This document shows positions 1-8,114 of a stretch of 8,114 bases of DNA, in pieces. Under the pieces are notes generated by a model. It saw only the letters and a program-made list of their open reading frames with translations, did no database searches and was not told the DNA's origin. The DNA is from a virus (Duplodnaviria; Heunggongvirae; Uroviricota; Caudoviricetes). A program made the position numbers and the translations under genes. Location: the IMG/VR virus record IMGVR_UViG_2548876863_000018; one strand, 5' to 3'. The first letter of the stretch is position 1; each line of letters starts with the position of its first letter.

Positions 1-354
1 GTTATAGTGCCGCAGTTTAAGGATCGGTCAACCGATCCTTAACTGATCGGCATTGCACATCTGTGGGCTTTCATGTTACCAGGAGCCGCGGCTCCTTTGC
101 GTATCCTTTTATGTCTCCTCACCGTCTGGTCGGTGTTTTGCTGAGACTTCTAACTTCCTGTTTTTGTTGGTGTTGTCCTTACACCGTCCAATCATGATTG
201 GGCTGGCGGAGTTTGAATAAATATTGTATTGCTTTGATTTTTAATGATTTTGTTTAATTCATTTTTTGTGCGTATACCTAATCGTATACCAATGGCTGTA
301 AGTTAATGTGAAATGAAAACGCATTTTTACTTGGATTGATGCTATATCGTACAG

Positions 355-657
355 GAAAAAAATTTTTTTTCGAAAGAACTGTTCACACTGTTCACCTTTC
401 TGTTTTCTCCTTTTATTTCAGTTGGATAGGTGGTGAATAATGGGTGAAGGGTGAACATTCGATTCTTCACCTCCGGCATTCTGCCGGTGTGACTCATACC
501 GGTGATTAATCCCCCGTACTGAAAATCACACAGGGAGAAAAAAGTTTTTTTTGATTTGATTGTTCACACTGTTCACCTTTCGTTTTTCTCTTTTAATTTC
601 AGTGTGATAACGGGTGAATATACGGTGAAGGGTGAACAGTGGATTGTTCACCTTCGG
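355..657. repeat. crr: crr-like cis replication region: two direct repeats of about 120 bp (about 355-475 and 536-657), each carrying TGTTCACC-type octamer iterons in both orientations
   Basis: Seen in sequence: tgttcacactgttcacc at 380-396 and 561-577; ggtgaa(t/g/c) copies at 432-457 and 612-638; tgttcacc at 645-652. P4 crr is known to lie just downstream of alpha and to contain duplicated iteron blocks bound by alpha. Confidence 0.75.
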
Positions 658-670
658 GGAATTCAGGGAT

Positions 671-695
671 AAAAAAAGACCGGCAGATGCCGGTC
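671..695 (-). terminator. Rho-independent terminator downstream of alpha (hairpin gaccggc-agat-gccggtc followed by a T7 run on the minus strand)
   Basis: Perfect 7-bp stem at 678-684 / 689-695 with 4-nt loop; plus-strand A7 at 671-677 is a U-run on the minus transcript, about 17 nt after the alpha stop codon (712-714). Confidence 0.65.
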
Positions 696-711
696 AGATG
701 AGTCATGATGG

Positions 712-3045
712 TCAGGTTGTTGCAGGGTCGTCACATTTTGGCAGCCAGTCGCCGTAGCTTTCCTCTTTCAGCGTCAGGTTGGTCTGTATCCCCTGTTTGG
801 TATGGCGCTTCTCGTAATTCAGTCCGTATTCCTTCAGCATCACCGGCAGCCCCAGCCCGAACATTTTCAGACTGAGTACATTCCGGTAGCCGTTTGCCTC
901 CATGTAGGCCAGATAGGCGTGATAGAGGTATTTACGGTAATTACGCGGGATGATACTGGCGTTCCCCATATACATGCCGCTGGTCTGCGGCAGGGTTTCC
1001 AGATAGCCGATAAAATCAAACGTCGGGTCGGCATCCCGTTTGATGTTCAGTGCCTCGTCTGAGTTCTGCTGGGACTGAAGCAGTGACCGGGCGAGCATCG
1101 GGTCGCTGAATTTCTGCATCAGGTGACGCACGATGACCGCCAGCTCGCGGGTGATTTTGTCCTTAAGCTGCGGGTCGCGCTCCTGCGGGGTTATCTGTTC
1201 CGGGAAGTGAATAATCACCCGCCGGCGTGACACGCCGCCGCTGCGGTCGGTGAAGCGCATCGGGTTATTGTTCACGGCCAGAATCACCGCCGGGATATGC
1301 GTGGAGTACGCATCCCGGTATTTCGGGTCCACGGACACCGCATCGCCGCCGGTGATGGCCTTGAGTCCGGCACCGTCGCCGCTCCATTTTTCCTGGTCCG
1401 GCAGGCGTATCAGTGAGAAGCCAGTTAACGCGGCACGTTCACGCGGGGATTCCAGCGTCTCGATGGTGGCCGACGTGGCGTTATCCTCCCCGGCCAGCAG
1501 GGTGGCTATTTCGGCCATGATACTTTTGCCGCTGCCGCCGGGACCGGTCACCTCCAGAAAGAGCTGCCAGTCGTAGCGGTTCGCCAGCACCATAAACAGT
1601 GCGGCCAGAATCACGTCGCGTTTTTCCGCACGGCCACCGGCGGCACGGTCAAGCCAGCGCCAGAACGCGGGGGCGTGGGTCTCCAGCGTTTCACCGTCCA
1701 CCGGCGGGGTGAAATCCACATCGCACAGGGTGCGCATCCAGTGTGACGGACTGTGCGGGTGGAACGTGCCGTTCTGCGTGTCGAGCACGCCGTTACGAAA
1801 GCCAATCAGGCGGCGGGAGGGGGCTTCCTGCTGCGGAATAATCAGCTTCAGGGTGTCCACCACGGAGGCCACCTTCCCGGAGGAGAACGGCGCGCGCAGA
1901 CGCTGAAACAGCCCGGCCACATCCCGGGCAAAGTCCTGTGGCGGCAGCACCTTCCAGACACCATTTTCATAGCGGGACAGAAGCTGGCCGTTGGCATCGA
2001 CCGCGAGCGCCTCGCCGTAATGCTCATAGATACGCATGGCCTTTTCGCTGGTACTCATGGCGGAAAACTCCGCTTCGCTCATGGTGTCGAACGGGCTTTC
2101 AGCCGGTGGCCGGATGGCATCGTAAATGGCCTTACGGGTGGCCTCCCCGCCGTACTGCGTGAAGGCATCATTCCAGTCACCGAAGACCGGCGGCAGGGCA
2201 ACAACGCCCTCACACGCATCTGCGGCTGCGGCGGCTTTTGTCTGGCCGTCACCGCTGAGGTCACGGTCTGCGGCAAGGACAATCTGACAGGCCGGATACT
2301 TCTGCCGGGCAAGGCTGGCCAGAGAAAGGAGGTTCACGGAAGAAAGCGCCACCATCACCGTTTCACCGGTCAGGTGATGCACGGTAAGTGCGGTCGCGTA
2401 TCCCTCCGCTATCCACAGACGTTTTCCGGCCTGATTCTGTCCTTCAAAGGTGTGACAGGTGCCCCTGACCTGTCCGCCTTTCAGAGTGCGCTTACGGCCG
2501 TCAGCACTGATTAACTGAAGGTTAACCAGTTCGCCGCTGTCGTCATACAGTGGCACCACAAGGTCACCGGCGCGCCAGCTCACGCCACCGGCTCTGTGTG
2601 TGCCGGTCAGCATCCGGCATTCCCGGCCGGGAAAGCCCTTGCGGGTCAGGTAGGCGTTACCGGTTCCGGGACAGGTTTTCGCCATCAGGGTTTGTGCCAG
2701 TGCGGCGGCGTTCTTCCGGGCAGCGTCTGTTTCAGCACCAGCGGCAGCCCTCACTGCCGGGTCAGCCGGTGGCAGACTGCCGGTCACGGCAGCCACCTTT
2801 GCGGCCGCGTCGGACGGGGAAACACCAAACACCTTTTCAACCAGTTTCAGACCGTCACCGGCACCACACTGATTGCAGTACCAGGTGCCGCGCCCCTCCT
2901 TGTCATCAAAACGGAAGCGGTCACTCCCGCCACAGACCGGACAGGGCTGATGACGGTTTTTCAGCACCTGAATCCCCAGCGCCGGGAGAATACGCGGCCA
3001 GTGGCCGAGCGCATGGCTGACGGTGGCGGTTACGTTCATTTTCAT
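712..3045 (-). CDS. alpha: P4 alpha-type bifunctional primase / SF3 helicase / origin-binding replication protein (777 aa)
   Basis: 777-aa ORF, the length I recall for P4 alpha; N-terminal zinc-ribbon CPVCGGSDRF...YCNQCG; Walker A GPGGSGKS in the central helicase part; AAGGAGA Shine-Dalgarno 8 nt before the ATG; flanked by TGTTCACC iteron clusters (ori upstream, crr downstream). Confidence 0.95.
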   Translation of the reverse strand: MKMNVTATVSHALGHWPRILPALGIQVLKNRHQPCPVCGGSDRFRFDDKEGRGTWYCNQCGAGDGLKLVEKVFGVSPSDAAAKVAAVTGSLPPADPAVRAAAGAETDAARKNAAALAQTLMAKTCPGTGNAYLTRKGFPGRECRMLTGTHRAGGVSWRAGDLVVPLYDDSGELVNLQLISADGRKRTLKGGQVRGTCHTFEGQNQAGKRLWIAEGYATALTVHHLTGETVMVALSSVNLLSLASLARQKYPACQIVLAADRDLSGDGQTKAAAAADACEGVVALPPVFGDWNDAFTQYGGEATRKAIYDAIRPPAESPFDTMSEAEFSAMSTSEKAMRIYEHYGEALAVDANGQLLSRYENGVWKVLPPQDFARDVAGLFQRLRAPFSSGKVASVVDTLKLIIPQQEAPSRRLIGFRNGVLDTQNGTFHPHSPSHWMRTLCDVDFTPPVDGETLETHAPAFWRWLDRAAGGRAEKRDVILAALFMVLANRYDWQLFLEVTGPGGSGKSIMAEIATLLAGEDNATSATIETLESPRERAALTGFSLIRLPDQEKWSGDGAGLKAITGGDAVSVDPKYRDAYSTHIPAVILAVNNNPMRFTDRSGGVSRRRVIIHFPEQITPQERDPQLKDKITRELAVIVRHLMQKFSDPMLARSLLQSQQNSDEALNIKRDADPTFDFIGYLETLPQTSGMYMGNASIIPRNYRKYLYHAYLAYMEANGYRNVLSLKMFGLGLPVMLKEYGLNYEKRHTKQGIQTNLTLKEESYGDWLPKCDDPATT

Positions 3046-3059
3046 GGTGTTGTTCTCCT

Positions 3060-3380
3060 TCAGTGCAGTACCGGCGCTTTTATGTGACGGGCACAGAGTT
3101 CATCCATCACAACCAGCCCGAGAAAGGACAGCGACGGCGCGGCCTTCAGGGGGCCGGATTCCATTAAATCTTCCAGCAGGGCACAGGCTATCTGACGCCC
3201 TTTTTCCTCACCGTGCTGGCGCAGATAAAAGCCTTCCAGCTCAGCGGCGATGGCCGCCTCCAGTGATTCAAGGGTGAGATGCGGGTAGCGGTGCTGACGT
3301 TCGCACACGGTCAGCCAGGCACAGGCGACAGCACGACGGTAAAGGGCTGCGCGTAAGACGGGCGGTAAGGGTGTTTTCAT
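3060..3380 (-). CDS. Small left-operon protein, P4 orf106-like (106 aa), function unknown
   Basis: 106-aa ORF directly upstream of alpha with a 14-nt gap that contains the alpha RBS; GGGAGG SD before its own ATG; position and size match the P4 orf106 I recall. Confidence 0.7.
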
Positions 3381-3515
3381 TTGCTTTCCTCCCTGTGACA
3401 GATGACTGCATTCCGTGCCGGTTGCATTAACTGATAAGGCATATCTGCGTCTCCTGAAGACGTGCGTATCCCTGCGCGAATACGCACATTTAATTTTTCG
3501 GGTGTCGTTTTTTAA

Positions 3516-3971
3516 TTACAGATAATTGCGGTAACTGTTATCCGGTGTGATTTCCGGGTCAGGCTCCGTGCGGGGGATTTCCCGCCATTCCCGCGCCACC
3601 GGTGCCGCCCGGCTGACCGGAACAGTGTCCTGCGGGTAAATATCCAGATATTTCTCCCGCCATTTCTGTAATTCCGGGTCTCCGGCCATTTCTTTCAGTA
3701 CCGCATGCCGGTTTACGGGGCTGCGTCTGAACAGGTCAGGACAGTCACAGGTAAATTCCCGCAGAAAACGCCCCAGCGGGATGTCTGTGGTGCGCCCGTC
3801 ACCAAGGATACGCACAAGGATACTGAATTTACGGCGGTACGGGTTCCAGACAATTTCCGGGCAGCGGTACGGCATTTCCCACGGAATACCGTCTTCCAGA
3901 ATGCCGACCACGGCCACATCGGGAAAACCGGCAGAACGGTAAATCTCACCGGGCTGGGGAAAATCAAACAT
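3516..3971 (-). CDS. Left-operon protein, P4 orf151-like (151 aa), function unknown
   Basis: 151-aa ORF whose ATG (3971-3969) overlaps the stop of the upstream ORF (ATGTTTGA, out of frame), implying translational coupling; size matches P4 orf151. Confidence 0.7.
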   Translation of the reverse strand: MFDFPQPGEIYRSAGFPDVAVVGILEDGIPWEMPYRCPEIVWNPYRRKFSILVRILGDGRTTDIPLGRFLREFTCDCPDLFRRSPVNRHAVLKEMAGDPELQKWREKYLDIYPQDTVPVSRAAPVAREWREIPRTEPDPEITPDNSYRNYL

Positions 3972-4251
3972 GCGTCCTGTCTCCCCGGTCTTTCTGCTGG
4001 GCGAGAAAATCGCGGCACAGGCCTTTGGCTTTCAGCTCATTCAGCACAAAATCAATATCTTCATTCAGGTAGCTGAAAATATGCGGAATGTAGAGCTGAT
4101 GCAGGCCGGAGAGTTCACGGTGAATCAAATCACCCCCAACAAACTGGGATACGGCGCTGGCGCGGTTGAGCTTATGGTAAGCCTCAATGCTGAGGTGTTC
4201 ACGGGCGTCATGACGCGCTGAGACGGTCTGAGGGGCTTTTTTATTACGCAC
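3964..4251 (-). CDS. epsilon: Epsilon-like small protein (95 aa, GTG start); candidate P2-repressor antagonist (derepression protein)
   Basis: GTG at 4251-4249 preceded by GGAGG with a 6-nt spacer; the GTG overlaps the kil/eta TAA stop (GTGCGTAA). The track's longer 147-aa version starts at a TTG and has a low-complexity N-terminus. Assignment to epsilon is by position and size only. Confidence 0.5.
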
Positions 4252-4441
4252 GGGACACCTCCACCACCGGCAGACGGGCAGCAAGGGAGAGCACATAGTC
4301 ACGGACAAGGGAACGGCGGGCGCTGCGTTCATCACCGGCGACGGTGCGAAGCATGCAGATACGGGGATGACGGTCTGCGCGACGGACAGCCGCAAACACA
4401 AAGACAAATTCAGGGTGTGAGGGGGTAAGGGTTGTAGCCAT
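4244..4441 (-). CDS. kil: Kil-like 65-aa polypeptide, first translated gene downstream of the PLE-like promoter; nested in-frame within eta
   Basis: ATG at 4441-4439 with strong AAGGAGA SD (plus 4449-4455) 7 nt upstream; 65 codons; about 318 nt downstream of the predicted PLE start site; the SD overlaps the seqC-like element. Matches my recollection of P4 kil (65 aa, nested in eta). Confidence 0.55.
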
Positions 4442-4834
4442 AAGGCAGTCTCCTTCGAGTAGCAAATAACTGCTATCGCCGGAGTTCCTACGCTCGATGG
4501 CGATAGCCCAGACGGGGGTAGGAATACCGGCCTCGAAGAATACCGGCCAGCCCGGAGGCTGCCCCGCCTGAGCTACCATTGACTCAGTGGCATAACATGC
4601 GATTGCGAACAGGATCATACCTGCACGGCAAACCACACGCCACACCATAATCTGGCGCTCTGTGGCGTTGATTGCGACACAAAAAAAGACGCATGGCGCG
4701 TCATATGTCGCCTTCGAGTTACACGGGTTCCTACGCCCGGCTGCCGATTTTGCGACAGCGGAAAAACTATATCCGCAAATGCCGGAAAAAGGCAAGCCAG
4801 AAAAAGGGACTTTTTGCAGAGCGGGCATCATCAT
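4244..4834 (-). CDS. eta: Eta-like long ORF (196 aa) whose C-terminal 65 codons are kil; would be translated only from PLL read-through transcripts
   Basis: ATG at 4834-4832 overlaps the vis stop (ATGA); the ORF runs across the PLE promoter, seqA, the cI region and seqC. Composition is odd for a globular protein, so the N-terminal part may be an overprinted or regulatory reading frame. Confidence 0.4.
4452..4493 (-). promoter_or_regulatory. seqC-like antisense target (cttcgag ... gttcctac) overlapping the kil ribosome-binding site
   Basis: ccttcgagt at 4452-4460 and gttcctacgc at 4484-4493; both are reverse complements of the seqB-like motifs at 4517-4538. Confidence 0.45.
4500..4575 (-). 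ncRNA. cI: cI-like immunity RNA region containing the seqB-like element; boundaries approximate
   Basis: ggtaggaa (4517-4524) and ctcgaag (4532-4538) are complementary to both flanking elements; tandem gaataccggcc repeats and GC-rich palindromic segments suggest a structured RNA. Location between PLE and kil matches the P4 immunity leader. Exact ends cannot be set from sequence. Confidence 0.4.
4711..4736 (-). promoter_or_regulatory. seqA-like antisense target in the PLE leader
   Basis: ccttcgagt at 4711-4719 and gttcctacgc at 4727-4736, about 20-50 nt downstream of the predicted PLE start; complementary to the seqB-like motifs. Confidence 0.45.
4766..4795 (-). promoter_or_regulatory. PLE-like sigma70 promoter (minus strand -35 TTGCCT, 18-bp spacer, -10 TATAGT)
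   Basis: Plus-strand aggcaa at 4790-4795 and actata at 4766-4771 read on the minus strand as TTGCCT and TATAGT; predicted start near 4759, just upstream of the seqA-like element. Confidence 0.4.
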
Positions 4835-5097
4835 GCGTCATACCCCCGTTTGCGTCCGGCAATGCGGCCGGCCATCCATGCGGTGACTTCAGAGTGCAGC
4901 CAGGCCACATTTTTACCGCCAAGACTCACCTGCGGCGGAAATTCCCCCTTACGGATGAGTTCATAGATGGTCGAGCGTGACAGGCCGCACAGGTGCATCA
5001 CTTCCGGCAGACGTAAAAAACGCTCCTGCGTGATGTCCGGCAGCGGCATCAGTGGCGTCACAGGGGCGGGAGACGGGGAAGAAAAAACAGCTTGCAT
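4831..5097 (-). CDS. vis: Vis / AlpA-family helix-turn-helix DNA-binding protein (88 aa), late-promoter regulator and excision factor
   Basis: 88-aa ORF with AlpA-type HTH signature ([27 protein letters not shown]); GAGG SD; first gene downstream of the PLL-like dyad; size matches P4 orf88/vis. Confidence 0.8.
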
Positions 5098-5200
5098 CGG
5101 GCTACCTCGTTAATGTCCATACAGCACCGGATAAGTCCGTCCGGCTTCGGGTAGCGCTTTATTTTGTGAATATTTTCAGCAGACGCAACAGGGGGGGATT

Positions 5201-5218
5201 TGTTCCGGCAGCCTTACA
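5201..5218 (-). promoter_or_regulatory. Ogr/Delta-type activator site TGT-N12-ACA of a PLL-like late promoter driving vis and the left operon
   Basis: tgt-tccggcagcctt-aca, an exact TGT-N12-ACA dyad about 110 bp upstream of the vis ATG (5097), consistent with a -55-centred activator site. Confidence 0.45.
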
Positions 5219-5377
5219 ATGCTTGTGTGTTTTTTGTTCATCTCCACTTAAAGTCATTTAAAGCCACTTAAAGCAATTCGTAATTTTTATAGTGAAATAC
5301 AAATCGTTTTTTCTTATTCATTTCCGGCAAATTAATAAAAACAAACAGTAGTAAACAGCACAAAAAGCCCATCAACG

Positions 5378-5481
5378 GGTGAACAGTGGTGAACAGACGG
5401 TGAACAGTCATTACTGCGATTGTTCACCCTTTAACTTACTGTATTACTTATCTTTTTTCTTATGATGAACAGAGGTGAACA
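5378..5481. repeat. ori: ori-like iteron cluster (GGTGAACA / TGTTCACC octamers)
   Basis: ggtgaaca at 5378-5385, 5388-5395, 5399-5406 (about 10-bp phasing), tgttcacc at 5421-5428, gatgaaca at 5463-5470, ggtgaaca at 5474-5481; about 4.8 kb from crr and between divergent late promoters. Confidence 0.7.
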
Positions 5482-5560
5482 GTAAAATATAAAAAAACAA
5501 ACAGTAAGCCGGTTTTTCCTGCGACCTTTTCCTGGCTTGCCGGTCTGAGGATGAGTCTCC

Positions 5561-5578
5561 TGTGTCAGGGCTGGCACA
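5561..5578 (+). promoter_or_regulatory. Ogr/Delta-type activator site TGT-N12-ACA of a Psid-like late promoter
   Basis: tgt-gtcagggctggc-aca at 5561-5578, about 80 bp upstream of the sid ATG at 5651. Confidence 0.5.
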
Positions 5579-5650
5579 TCTGCAATGCGTCGTGTTGTTG
5601 TCCGGTGTACGTCACAATTTTCTTAACCTGAAGTGACGAGGAGCCGGAAA

Positions 5651-6385
5651 ATGTCTGACAACACCATCCCTGAATATCTGCAACCCGCACTGGCACAACT
5701 GGAAAAGGCCAGAGCCGCCCACCTTGAGAACGCCCGCCTGATGGATGAGACCGTCACGGCCATTGAACGGGCAGAGCAGGAAAAAAATGCGCTGGCGCAG
5801 GCCGACGGAAACGACGCTGACGACTGGCGCACGGCCTTTCGTGCAGCCGGTGGTGTCCTGAGCGACGAGCTGAAACAGCGCCACATTGAGCGCGTGGCAC
5901 GCCGGGAGCTGGTACAGGAATATGACAATCTGGCCGTGGTGCTGAATTTCGAACGTGAACGCCTGAAAGGGGCGTGTGACAGCACGGCCACCGCCTACCG
6001 GAAGGCACATCATCACCTTCTGAGTCTGTATGCAGAGCATGAGCTGGAACACGCCCTGAATGAAACCTGTGAGGCGCTTGTCCGGGCAATGCATCTGAGT
6101 ATCCTGGTACAGGAAAATCCGCTCGCCAACACCACCGGCCATCAGGGCTACGTCGCACCCGATAAAGCTGTCATGCAGCAGGTGAAATCATCGCTGGAAC
6201 AGAAAATTAAACAGATGCAAATCAGCCTCACCGGCGAGCCGGTTCTCCGGCTGACCGGACTGTCAGCGGCAACACTCCCGCACATGGATTATGAGGTGGC
6301 AGGCACACCGGCACAGCGCAAGGTGTGGCAGGACAAAATAGACCAGCAGGGTGCAGAGCTTAAGGCCAGAGGACTGCTGTCATGA
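5651..6385 (+). CDS. sid: Sid capsid size-determination external scaffold protein (244 aa)
   Basis: Begins MSDNTIPEYLQ from the ATG at 5651 with GAGGAG SD 7 nt upstream (the track's 250-aa version begins at an upstream GTG, 5633); coiled-coil-like sequence; followed by delta and psu in the canonical order. Confidence 0.9.
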   Translation: MSDNTIPEYLQPALAQLEKARAAHLENARLMDETVTAIERAEQEKNALAQADGNDADDWRTAFRAAGGVLSDELKQRHIERVARRELVQEYDNLAVVLNFERERLKGACDSTATAYRKAHHHLLSLYAEHELEHALNETCEALVRAMHLSILVQENPLANTTGHQGYVAPDKAVMQQVKSSLEQKIKQMQISLTGEPVLRLTGLSAATLPHMDYEVAGTPAQRKVWQDKIDQQGAELKARGLLS

Positions 6386-6882
6386 TTTACTGCCCGTCGT
6401 GTGGACATGTTGCTCACACCCGCCGCGCACATTTCATGGACGATGGCACCAAGATAATGATTGCACAGTGCCGGAATATTTATTGCTCTGCGACATTTGA
6501 AGCGAGTGAAAGCTTTTTCTCTGACAGTAAAGATTCAGGAATGGAATACATTTCAGGCAAACAGAGATACCGCGATTCACTGACTTCTGCCTCCGGCAGT
6601 ATGAAACGCCCGAAAAGAATGCTTGTTACCGGATATTGTTGTCGGAGATGTAAAGGCCTTGCACTGTCAAGAACATCGCGGCGTCTGTCTCAGGAAGTCA
6701 CCGAACGTTTTTATGTGTGCACGGATCCGGGCTGTGGTCTGGTGTTTAAAACGCTTCAGACCATCAACCGCTTCATTGTCCGCCCGGTCACACCGGACGA
6801 ACTGGCAGAACGCCTGCATGAAAAACAGGAACTGCCGCCAGTACGGTTAAAAACACAATCATATTCGCTGCGTCTGGAATGA
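6382..6882 (+). CDS. delta: Delta late transcriptional activator, tandem Ogr-type zinc-finger protein (166 aa)
   Basis: Two Ogr-like cysteine motifs (CPSCGH...CRNIYC and CRRCKG...CTDPGC); ATG overlaps the sid stop (ATGA); 166 aa as recalled for P4 delta. Confidence 0.9.
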   Translation: MIYCPSCGHVAHTRRAHFMDDGTKIMIAQCRNIYCSATFEASESFFSDSKDSGMEYISGKQRYRDSLTSASGSMKRPKRMLVTGYCCRRCKGLALSRTSRRLSQEVTERFYVCTDPGCGLVFKTLQTINRFIVRPVTPDELAERLHEKQELPPVRLKTQSYSLRLE

Positions 6883-6955
6883 GGGCTGCCGGTTAACCCC
6901 GGCCGTCGCCGCACACCGTATTTTTATTCTTCAGCATGATGAGAAAGAGATAACG

Positions 6956-7528
6956 ATGGAAAGCACAGCCTTACAGCAGGCCTTTGACACCTGTCAGAAT
7001 AACAAAGCAGCATGGCTGCAACGCAAAAATGAGCTGGCAGCGGCCGAACAGGAATATCTGCGGCTTCAGTCAGGAGAAGGCAGAAACGTCAGTCGCCTGG
7101 ACGAATTACGCAATATTATCGAAGTCAGAAAATGGCAGGTGAATCAGGCCGCCGGTCGTTATATTCGTTCGCATGAAGCCGTTCAGCACATCAGCATCCG
7201 CGACCGGCTGAATGATTTTATGCAGCAGCACGGCACAGCACTGGCGGCGGCACTGGCACCGGAGCTGATGGGCTACAGTGAGCTGACGGCCATTGCCCGA
7301 AACTGTGCCATACAGCGTGCCACAGATGCCCTGCGTGAAGCCCTCCTGTCCTGGCTTGCGAAGGGTGAAAAAATTAATTATTCCGCACAGGATAGCGACA
7401 TTTTAACGACCATCGGATTCAGGCCTGACGCGGCTTCGGTGGATGACAGCCGTGAAAAATTCACCCCTGCGCAGAACATGATTTTTTCGCGTAAAAGTGC
7501 GCAACTGGCATCACATCAGTCTGTGTAA
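6956..7528 (+). CDS. psu: Psu polarity-suppression protein (Rho antagonist and capsid decoration), 190 aa
   Basis: 190-aa ORF third in the sid-delta-psu operon; begins MESTALQQAFDTCQNNKAAWLQRKNELAAAEQEY; size and position match P4 psu. Confidence 0.9.
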   Translation: MESTALQQAFDTCQNNKAAWLQRKNELAAAEQEYLRLQSGEGRNVSRLDELRNIIEVRKWQVNQAAGRYIRSHEAVQHISIRDRLNDFMQQHGTALAAALAPELMGYSELTAIARNCAIQRATDALREALLSWLAKGEKINYSAQDSDILTTIGFRPDAASVDDSREKFTPAQNMIFSRKSAQLASHQSV

Positions 7529-7563
7529 AATTCCCCGAAAATCCGCCCGTTTTTACTGAAAAA

Positions 7564-7604
7564 AGCCATGCATCGATAAGGTGCATGGCTTTGCATGCGT
7601 TTTC
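7564..7604 (+). terminator. Hairpin downstream of psu (agccatgca / tgcatggct stem), possible late-operon terminator
   Basis: 9-bp perfect stem at 7564-7572 / 7582-7590 with a 9-nt loop; the T-tract after it is interrupted (ttgcatgcgttttcc), so terminator function is uncertain. Confidence 0.35.
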
Positions 7605-7692
7605 CTGCCTCATTTTCTGCAGACCGCACCATTCCCGGCGCGGTCTGAGCGTGTCAGTGCAACTGCATTAAAACCGCCCCGCAAAGCGGGCG

Positions 7693-7711
7693 GGCGAGGC
7701 GGGGAAAGCAC
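7693..7711. other. cos: cos cohesive-end sequence of P2/P4 type (GGCGAGGCGGGGAAAGCAC)
   Basis: Exact 19-nt match to the P2/P4 cohesive-end sequence as I recall it, in the expected place after psu; GC-rich hairpin (7620-7647) immediately upstream. Confidence 0.8.
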
Positions 7712-7817
7712 TGCGCGCGATGTATCATAAAAATGTCTTTTAGAATTATCACAAATCTCATTCAGCTTTAAAATTCATTTTCAAGATGTAGATCTGTGCT
7801 TTATATGAACGTAATAT

Positions 7818-8090
7818 ATGAACATTAACGACTTATTTTTCCACATGGAGCAAAGTGAAGTGGCGATTGTTGAATTGCATTTTGATGGCGATATTGCACC
7901 TGATCACCAAGTATCCCTGAGAACTCTTTCTAAAAGCCTAGGCCATTTGCAAAGTGCCTTAGATCGGGCTTATCTTGACATCAGACATGGTAATCTTTGG
8001 AAATATGCAAAGATGCATCATGACTACTATAAAGATGTTGAACTGTTGGTACAGCCCCCTAGGGAAGGTGCGAACAAGTTCCTGATATGA
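7818..8090 (+). CDS. Hypothetical 90-aa protein, first gene of the AT-rich cargo after cos; function unknown
   Basis: Complete ORF in a region whose base composition is visibly more AT-rich than the rest of the window; no clear Shine-Dalgarno; its stop overlaps a downstream ATG (ATGA at 8087-8090) that opens a reading frame continuing past the window end. Confidence 0.55.
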   Translation: MNINDLFFHMEQSEVAIVELHFDGDIAPDHQVSLRTLSKSLGHLQSALDRAYLDIRHGNLWKYAKMHHDYYKDVELLVQPPREGANKFLI

Positions 8091-8114
8091 GATCATCATA
8101 TTCATCCGGAGCGC

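Follow-up and report, generated by a model that had tools for sequence, protein, structure and literature searches.

Genes and features of the immunity region

The window, by which we mean the whole 8,114-nucleotide stretch of DNA analyzed here, carries the P4-like gene set of alpha primase, epsilon, vis/orf88, sid, delta, and psu. Positions 4291 to 11624 of satellite phage P4 align with window positions 357 to 7692 at 97.6% identity, from alpha through psu and cos and in the P4 gene order, while the immunity region (4200 to 5100) is only 93.5% identical to that of P4. The Pfam families Derepression and Phage_AlpA both match in the window, a RefSeq-annotated relative is 99.9% identical, and a prophage in E. 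coli OkiPb01684 shows 100% identity across window positions 38 to 8070. Judged by these sequence matches, the window is a P4-like satellite prophage of E. coli, and its allele is present at an identity of at least 99% in 142 complete E. coli genome records. The promoter, the terminator, CI, all six boxes, kil, eta, vis, epsilon, and the 777-amino-acid alpha primase are intact in it, and the features of the immunity region are collected in Table 1.

The orf88/vis homologue lies directly upstream of eta and overlaps its start. The eta frame, which fits eta of P4, matches the Pfam family Phage_ASH at residues 22 to 143 and is labeled “host cell division inhibitor Icd-like protein” in the RefSeq annotation of the relative; eta and kil of P4 have been described previously (PMC10111431).

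Table 1. Features of the immunity region, in the order of the leftward transcript (all on the minus strand)
Feature	Coordinates	Strand	Basis or remark
orf88/vis homologue, AlpA-family helix-turn-helix protein	4831..5097	-	Pfam Phage_AlpA, E 7.3e-21; corresponds to P4 ORF88
eta reading frame, 196 codons	4244..4834	-	ORF list; spans the whole RNA leader; kil is its last 65 codons
Predicted PLE-type constitutive promoter	4766..4795	-	-35 TTGCCT, 18-nt spacer, -10 TATAGT; same as P4
seqA leader RNA, IsrK-like: two hairpins, linker, terminator	4682..4759	-	Rfam RF01394 isrK
seqA box 1 GUAGGAA, in the loop of the second leader hairpin	4728..4734	-	pairs with 4518-4524
seqA box 2 CUCGAAGG, 3' of the box 1 hairpin	4711..4718	-	pairs with 4532-4539
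Weak intrinsic terminator, P4 t1 equivalent: hairpin GACGCGCCAUGCGUC, then U7	4681..4702	-	terminator scan and terminator stem of the isrK model
CI antisense RNA gene	4496..4583	-	Rfam RF01695 C4
seqB box 2 (CUUCGAG) in the 10-nt loop of CI hairpin 2 (AUUCUUCGAG)	4532..4541	-	ensemble cost of the unpaired state 1.0 kcal/mol
seqB box 1 UUCCUAC, single-stranded CI junction	4518..4524	-	ensemble cost of the unpaired state 0.02 kcal/mol
Alternative hairpin: 4507..4499 (CI 3' arm plus GCC) with 4480..4472 (seqC spacer)	4472..4507	-	9-nt perfect inverted repeat I4
seqC box 1 GUAGGAA	4485..4491	-	complementary to seqB box 1
seqC box 2 CUCGAAGGA, overlapping the kil Shine-Dalgarno	4451..4459	-	complementary to seqB box 2
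kil, 65 codons	4244..4441	-	ATG 4441..4439; translation; few substitutions versus P4 in the aligned region

Both ends of the window reach past the alignment with P4. Positions 1 to 356 are without a P4 match; within them, 81 to 201 are approximately 90% identical to a “tmRNA pseudogene” of phage LLS, and in a close relative ypjA adjoins this side. No intact tRNA or tmRNA was found by ARAGORN at the left end of the window. This segment is probably an attachment-site remnant of the ssrA locus. On the right, positions 7693 to 8114 lie beyond the P4 right end (cos), again without a P4 match, and the closest E. coli relatives match up to 8070 only; this is probably where the variable cargo of P4-like satellites begins.

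A two-part motif repeated at three sites of the leader

The preliminary description reported two same-strand copies of a two-part motif flanking a center that carries the reverse complements, and direct reading of the sequence bears this out, with positions that agree to within 1 to 2 nt. On the plus strand, the upstream copy (seqA) consists of cttcgag at 4712-4718 and gttcctac at 4727-4734, spaced by 8 nt, and the downstream copy (seqC) has the same half-motifs at 4453-4459 and 4484-4491 with a spacing of 24 nt. The central copy (seqB) comprises gtaggaa at 4518-4524 and ctcgaag at 4532-4538, 7 nt apart, and all three spacings are those given before. The pattern CTTCGAG-N(5-30)-GTTCCTAC matches twice in the window and in none of 200 dinucleotide-preserving shuffles, and an independent repeat search recovers the direct repeats (D2 and D3) as well as the inverted repeats (I1, I2, I3, and I7).

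Against both seqA and seqC, seqB offers exact 7 + 7 nt complements. The predicted duplex is bipartite, as had been suggested, with two separate boxes per target, and the center is predicted to pair with either flank, at -18.9 kcal/mol for seqA and -20.3 kcal/mol for seqC. These energies are sums of short duplexes calculated per box, plus opening costs, and not a full interaction model. The same pairings covary across 34 alleles (see below). In addition, folding of the 330-nt leader yields a minimum free energy (MFE) structure in which seqA is paired with seqB (z-score, -5.78).

Folds of the leader, the CI RNA, and the start of kil

The layout had been likened to that of P4 immunity, and this comparison holds along its whole length: the region aligns end to end with P4 (X51522), the Rfam model for CI/C4 falls on the central copy, and that for IsrK/seqA falls on the upstream copy. 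The promoter listed in Table 1 is the sole promoter-like site found within 4200-5150, and the isrK match begins 7 nt downstream of it, at 4759. This match (RF01394) scores 69.4 bits against a gathering score of 50 and covers model positions 1 to 77 of 77, terminator included. Opening seqA box 1 costs 0.08 kcal/mol.

In the alignment, the positions of the promoter and the terminator match those of P4, and the terminator is one that we take to be the counterpart of P4 t1, a name that, together with the dependence of this terminator on CI, is reportedly established for P4. At equilibrium, the t1 hairpin of the window has a probability of 0.98 when the leader is free and 0.94 when seqA is masked, while the mean over 34 alleles rises from 0.69 to 0.95 upon masking. 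The idea that free seqA acts as an antiterminator that CI removes is unsupported as a general mechanism, since masking does not raise the probability in the window or in several other alleles. The spacer between t1 and CI (4586-4639) is the most variable part of the leader, in substitutions as well as in length, with a 9-nt deletion relative to P4 and larger length differences among other relatives; these length changes nearly always keep the eta frame.

The match to the C4 family (RF01695) reaches 74.4 bits against a gathering score of 45 (E 1.5e-13) and extends over model positions 1 to 87 of 87. The CI core, bounded by a long stem, runs from 4577 to 4502 and is followed by GCCA. We observe an MFE of -48.0 kcal/mol for the ViennaRNA fold of CI (z-score, -4.69), with none of 200 shuffles equally stable, and this fold agrees with the Rfam model: a closing stem of 16 to 17 bp, two inner hairpins, and a single-stranded junction. 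The GCCA tail lies 3' of the acceptor-like stem, and its CC is invariant in 34 alleles; a tRNA-like stem followed by GCCA has reportedly been linked to RNase P processing. An exact 11-nt direct repeat, GAATACCGGCC, is found at 4522-4532 and 4538-4548 (repeat D4). In the RNA, the same GGCCGGUAUUC context precedes both seqB boxes, which gives the two boxes similar local settings.

The downstream target was also said to overlap the kil Shine-Dalgarno, and it does so. The sequence AAGGAG (4455..4450, minus strand) has 3 nt in common with the 7-nt seqC motif CUCGAAG (4459..4453), and pairing of the extended box 2, CUCGAAGGA (4459..4451), covers 5 of the 6 Shine-Dalgarno bases.

Between the CI stem and the seqC spacer, we identified an alternative hairpin. 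Of its cells in the 34 alleles, 99.3% are paired, compared with 22 to 64% in slid controls, and 4 of its 9 pairs are compensatory. At equilibrium, this hairpin, a competitor of the basal 6 bp of the CI stem, has a probability of 0.31 in the window versus 0.75 for the basal stem. When formed, it has seqC box 1 as part of its loop, a position like that of seqA box 1 in the second leader hairpin. The unequal spacings of the two targets can be understood in this way: each target appears to have box 1 within the loop of a hairpin, followed by box 2 past the 3' arm, and the spacing in seqC is 24 nt instead of the 8 nt of seqA because the alternative hairpin loops out seqC box 1. This hairpin could take part in target presentation, in the access of RNase P to the GCCA tail, or in a terminator.

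Allele diversity and covariation among related leaders

Relatives were taken from nine E. coli loci across the identity range and from 120 IMG/VR contigs among the matches listed in a pattern search for the conserved CI core, giving at least 124 complete leaders in total. Among the matches listed, these leaders contain at least 34 seqB combinations, made up of at least 25 loop (box 2) alleles and at least 3 box 1 alleles. The three box 1 alleles among these matches, CCU, CUC, and UCC, are all the permutations of two C and one U. Alleles are matched at all three sites (seqA, seqB, and seqC), and the boxes reassort among otherwise near-identical leaders; one locus (L004), for example, combines box 2 of the window with box 1 of P4.

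For the analysis of covariation, one leader per combination (34 in total) was aligned with MAFFT (alignment A2), in which the boxes occupy columns 28-51, 239-260, and 290-330. In the helices between seqA and seqB, 99.6% of cells are paired and 10 of 15 pairs are compensatory, with a covariation score of 0.665 versus 0.218 in shuffles and 41 to 52% of cells paired in slid controls. Split by box, pairing with seqB amounts to 100% of cells for seqA box 1 (3 of 7 pairs compensatory) and 99.3% for seqA box 2 (7 of 8 compensatory). For the helices between seqB and seqC, 97.4% of cells are paired and 9 of 15 pairs are compensatory: seqC box 1 is paired in 100% of cells (3 of 7 compensatory), and seqC box 2 in 95.1% (6 of 8 compensatory), a value to be read with an alignment that is one column off-register in three or four sequences. 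Slid controls for both interactions together span 33 to 53% of cells paired, and none of 500 shuffles attained either the observed pairing or the observed covariation score. Covariation across the 34 aligned alleles thus supports both predicted interactions, seqA with seqB and seqB with seqC.

In 120 of 124 relatives among the matches listed, the eta frame can be read without a stop from a point upstream of seqA through to kil, and the distance from seqA to the ATG equals 2 modulo 3 in 32 of the 34 alleles. The possibility that the Phage_ASH or “Icd-like” gene is a spurious translation of an RNA gene is ruled out by these 120 open frames and by the indels that keep the frame. Since the frame is kept through the leader, the region encodes RNA structure as well as protein, and the box alleles are under three constraints, namely, two sets of base pairs and a reading frame.

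A wider reading, which we put forward tentatively and regard as possible rather than probable, is that P4-like satellites use a modular two-box code of immunity types, a large natural orthogonal antisense-target set that would have diversified in escaping the immunity of resident satellites while the eta frame and the third helix (the alternative hairpin, 4507..4499/4480..4472) were kept. We found no survey of CI/seqA/seqC alleles in the literature searched, part of which ground may be covered by older literature on P4 and phiR73. What might be new to specialists is limited to the modular diversity of the boxes and this third helix.

Predicted immunity specificity in comparison with P4

The immunity region of P4, a PLE leader with seqA, t1, cI/seqB, seqC, and kil/eta, and that of the window are homologous from end to end, and their parts follow one another in the same order. 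Little or no difference is seen in the promoter, in the terminator, in kil, or in the CI scaffold once the boxes are set aside, and the flanking genes are the same. In contrast, both boxes differ at all three sites: box 1 reads GUAGGAA:UUCCUAC in the window and GUGAGAA:UUCUCAC in P4, and box 2 reads CUCGAAG:CUUCGAG in the window and UUCACAG:CUGUGAA in P4. Further differences fall in the spacer between t1 and CI, with the 9-nt deletion and clustered substitutions, and directly before kil, with +1/-1 indels. In the end-to-end alignment, all box differences keep pairing. Within the leader as transcribed, the window and P4 differ at 16 of 45 box positions, compared with 27 of 273 other positions (Fisher p = 3e-5).

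In short-duplex sums, CI of the window reaches the energies given above on its own targets and has only -1.9 kcal/mol on P4 seqA and -5.5 kcal/mol on P4 seqC, and CI of P4 has -6.2 and -8.4 kcal/mol on the seqA and seqC of the window, respectively. Over all alleles, the means are -18.3 (seqA) and -20.2 kcal/mol (seqC) for cognate pairs and -7.8 and -10.1 kcal/mol for non-cognate pairs. Alleles with one box in common lie at -24 to -28 kcal/mol for seqA and seqC summed, compared with -38.5 kcal/mol for cognate pairs, and these intermediate energies make partial cross-immunity between some types possible. RNAcofold of CI with its target was rejected for this purpose, as it gives similarly small energies for cognate and non-cognate pairs; it keeps the RNAs folded and cannot draw loop-loop contacts, for which reason energies per box with opening costs were used instead. 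Duplex prediction on 36-nt seqB segments opens the hairpin stems of CI unrealistically and provides only a rough contrast between cognate and cross pairs.

Because both boxes are changed relative to P4 at three sites in a compensatory manner, the element would have an immunity specificity of its own and no mutual immunity with P4. From the mismatches in both boxes and at both targets, we predict that it probably represents an immunity type different from P4, i.e., that the two are heteroimmune.

Proposed immunity circuit and alternative readings

We consider it highly likely that the window contains a P4-type antisense-RNA immunity module with a specificity of its own, a reading in which the homology, RNA families, box exposure, complementarity, covariation, and frame conservation observed here come together. 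The processing of CI, its pairing with seqA and seqC, and the control of t1 and kil are known from work on P4, and it is from experiments on P4 that CI processing, termination, and the block to kil translation are carried over to the window. In the proposed circuit, the constitutive PLE-type promoter would give rise to a leftward transcript that contains, one after another, seqA, the weak t1, the CI domain, seqC, and the first part of kil. Within it, CI would fold into its long stem and two inner hairpins and, by homology with P4 CI and P1 C4, would be excised as a stable small RNA, presenting CUUCGAG in the loop of hairpin 2 and UUCCUAC in the unpaired junction. For a module of the P4 type, RNase P and PNPase would be expected to carry out this processing and to leave an RNA of about 69 nt. 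These boxes would then pair with seqA and seqC on nascent PLE transcripts, either of the prophage itself or of a superinfecting satellite of the same type. Pairing with seqA would raise termination at t1, as in P4, and also limit the production of CI, and pairing with seqC would cover the ribosome-binding site of kil; the untranslated kil RNA would lead to termination ahead of the replication genes epsilon and alpha. Transcripts from an upstream late promoter, translated through the leader as eta, would escape control by CI. Summaries of the P4 mechanism are available (PMC3632133, PMC4825925, and PMC10111431).

An intact architecture could also belong to a cryptic prophage, and the module would then have ceased to act as an immunity switch in its host. 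Defects are frequent among P4-like elements, one close relative (L003) has an IS3 insertion between orf151 and epsilon, and the window is without the integrase end and, by ARAGORN, without an intact tRNA or tmRNA at its left end. We nevertheless regard decay as improbable, given that every part of the module is intact in the window, that the allele recurs at an identity of at least 99% in 142 E. coli records, and that the complementarity is perfect, which decay would not preserve. Lower still is the probability we assign to complementarity that works in cis only, with seqA, seqB, and seqC forming an attenuator within one transcript and no processed RNA acting in trans. Although the MFE fold of the 330-nt leader does pair seqA with seqB in the same molecule, the family that CI matches across the entire model, tRNA-like stem and GCCA included, is one of processed RNAs that act in trans, and one seqB cannot pair with seqA and seqC simultaneously, yet both covary with it. 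Genetic experiments in P4 reportedly showed the immunity RNA acting in trans. This trans action likewise argues against a cis-only arrangement and is covered by summaries of P4 immunity (PMC3632133 and PMC4825925).

The repeats might finally be read as repeated peptide motifs of Eta that have no function as RNA, and the whole leader does stay open in a conserved frame that matches a Pfam family (Phage_ASH). To this we give hardly any credence: the variation keeps base pairs in approximately 97 to 100% of cells, transversion pairs included, the covariance model match depends on structure, and the central copy, being the reverse complement of the flanks, encodes a different peptide.

Related RNA systems and significance

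IsrK and C4 are structural homologues of P4 seqA RNA and CI RNA, respectively (PMC3632133 and PMC4825925). The C4 RNA of phages P1 and P7, which goes together with icd and ant, belongs to the same family (RF01695) as CI of the window and, as in P4-type CI, is a small RNA cut from the transcript under its control. C4 exposes two short elements for pairing with repeated targets, and one of these targets extends over the ribosome-binding site of an Icd-like gene. The two systems differ in output. In P1 and P7, this is mainly a block to icd translation, coupled to antirepressor synthesis, inside an immunity based on a protein repressor, whereas in the P4 type, and by analogy in the window, the RNA would be the primary immunity factor and the output premature termination ahead of the replication genes. 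Differences in the C4 elements set the heteroimmunity between P1 and P7 (PMC12197685).

The seqA leader and terminator of the window match the full-length model (69.4 bits) of IsrK (RF01394), known from Salmonella Gifsy-1. In this lambdoid prophage, IsrK is a dual-function small/messenger RNA that activates the translation of orf45 and anrP, binds Hfq, and trans-activates a downstream inactive mRNA isoform; a processed RNA, STnc1160, lies downstream of IsrK and is complementary to it (PMC3632133 and PMC4825925). Unlike IsrK of Gifsy-1, the IsrK-like fold of the window would, by analogy with P4, serve a satellite immunity circuit as its target site and attenuator.

The mechanism itself is already known and is unchanged by these results, and the window holds a specificity allele that is one among many and is common in sequenced E. 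coli. For annotation, a stretch labeled “Icd-like protein” in RefSeq becomes a complete P4-type RNA immunity switch with its own predicted specificity. At related loci, the immunity type of P4-like satellites would be set by two short, exchangeable boxes, which could serve in satellite typing, in predicting mutual exclusion, and as a source of orthogonal antisense regulators. More than 30% of Enterobacterales genomes contain P4-like elements (PMC8628076).

Finally, CI-like sequences also occur on plasmids, with 891 such places in E. coli genomes. On IncI-type plasmids, the same module of three parts precedes a gene for a helix-turn-helix regulator and one of the NusG family. On the IncI-type plasmid p2 of L133 (NZ_CP059919.1, approximately 1480-1760, minus strand), near the repZ pseudoknot, a C4/CI RNA of 77.5 bits is accompanied by seqA and seqC boxes of its own that match it; this seqC and the ribosome-binding site of the helix-turn-helix regulator gene overlap, and the NusG-family gene comes next.
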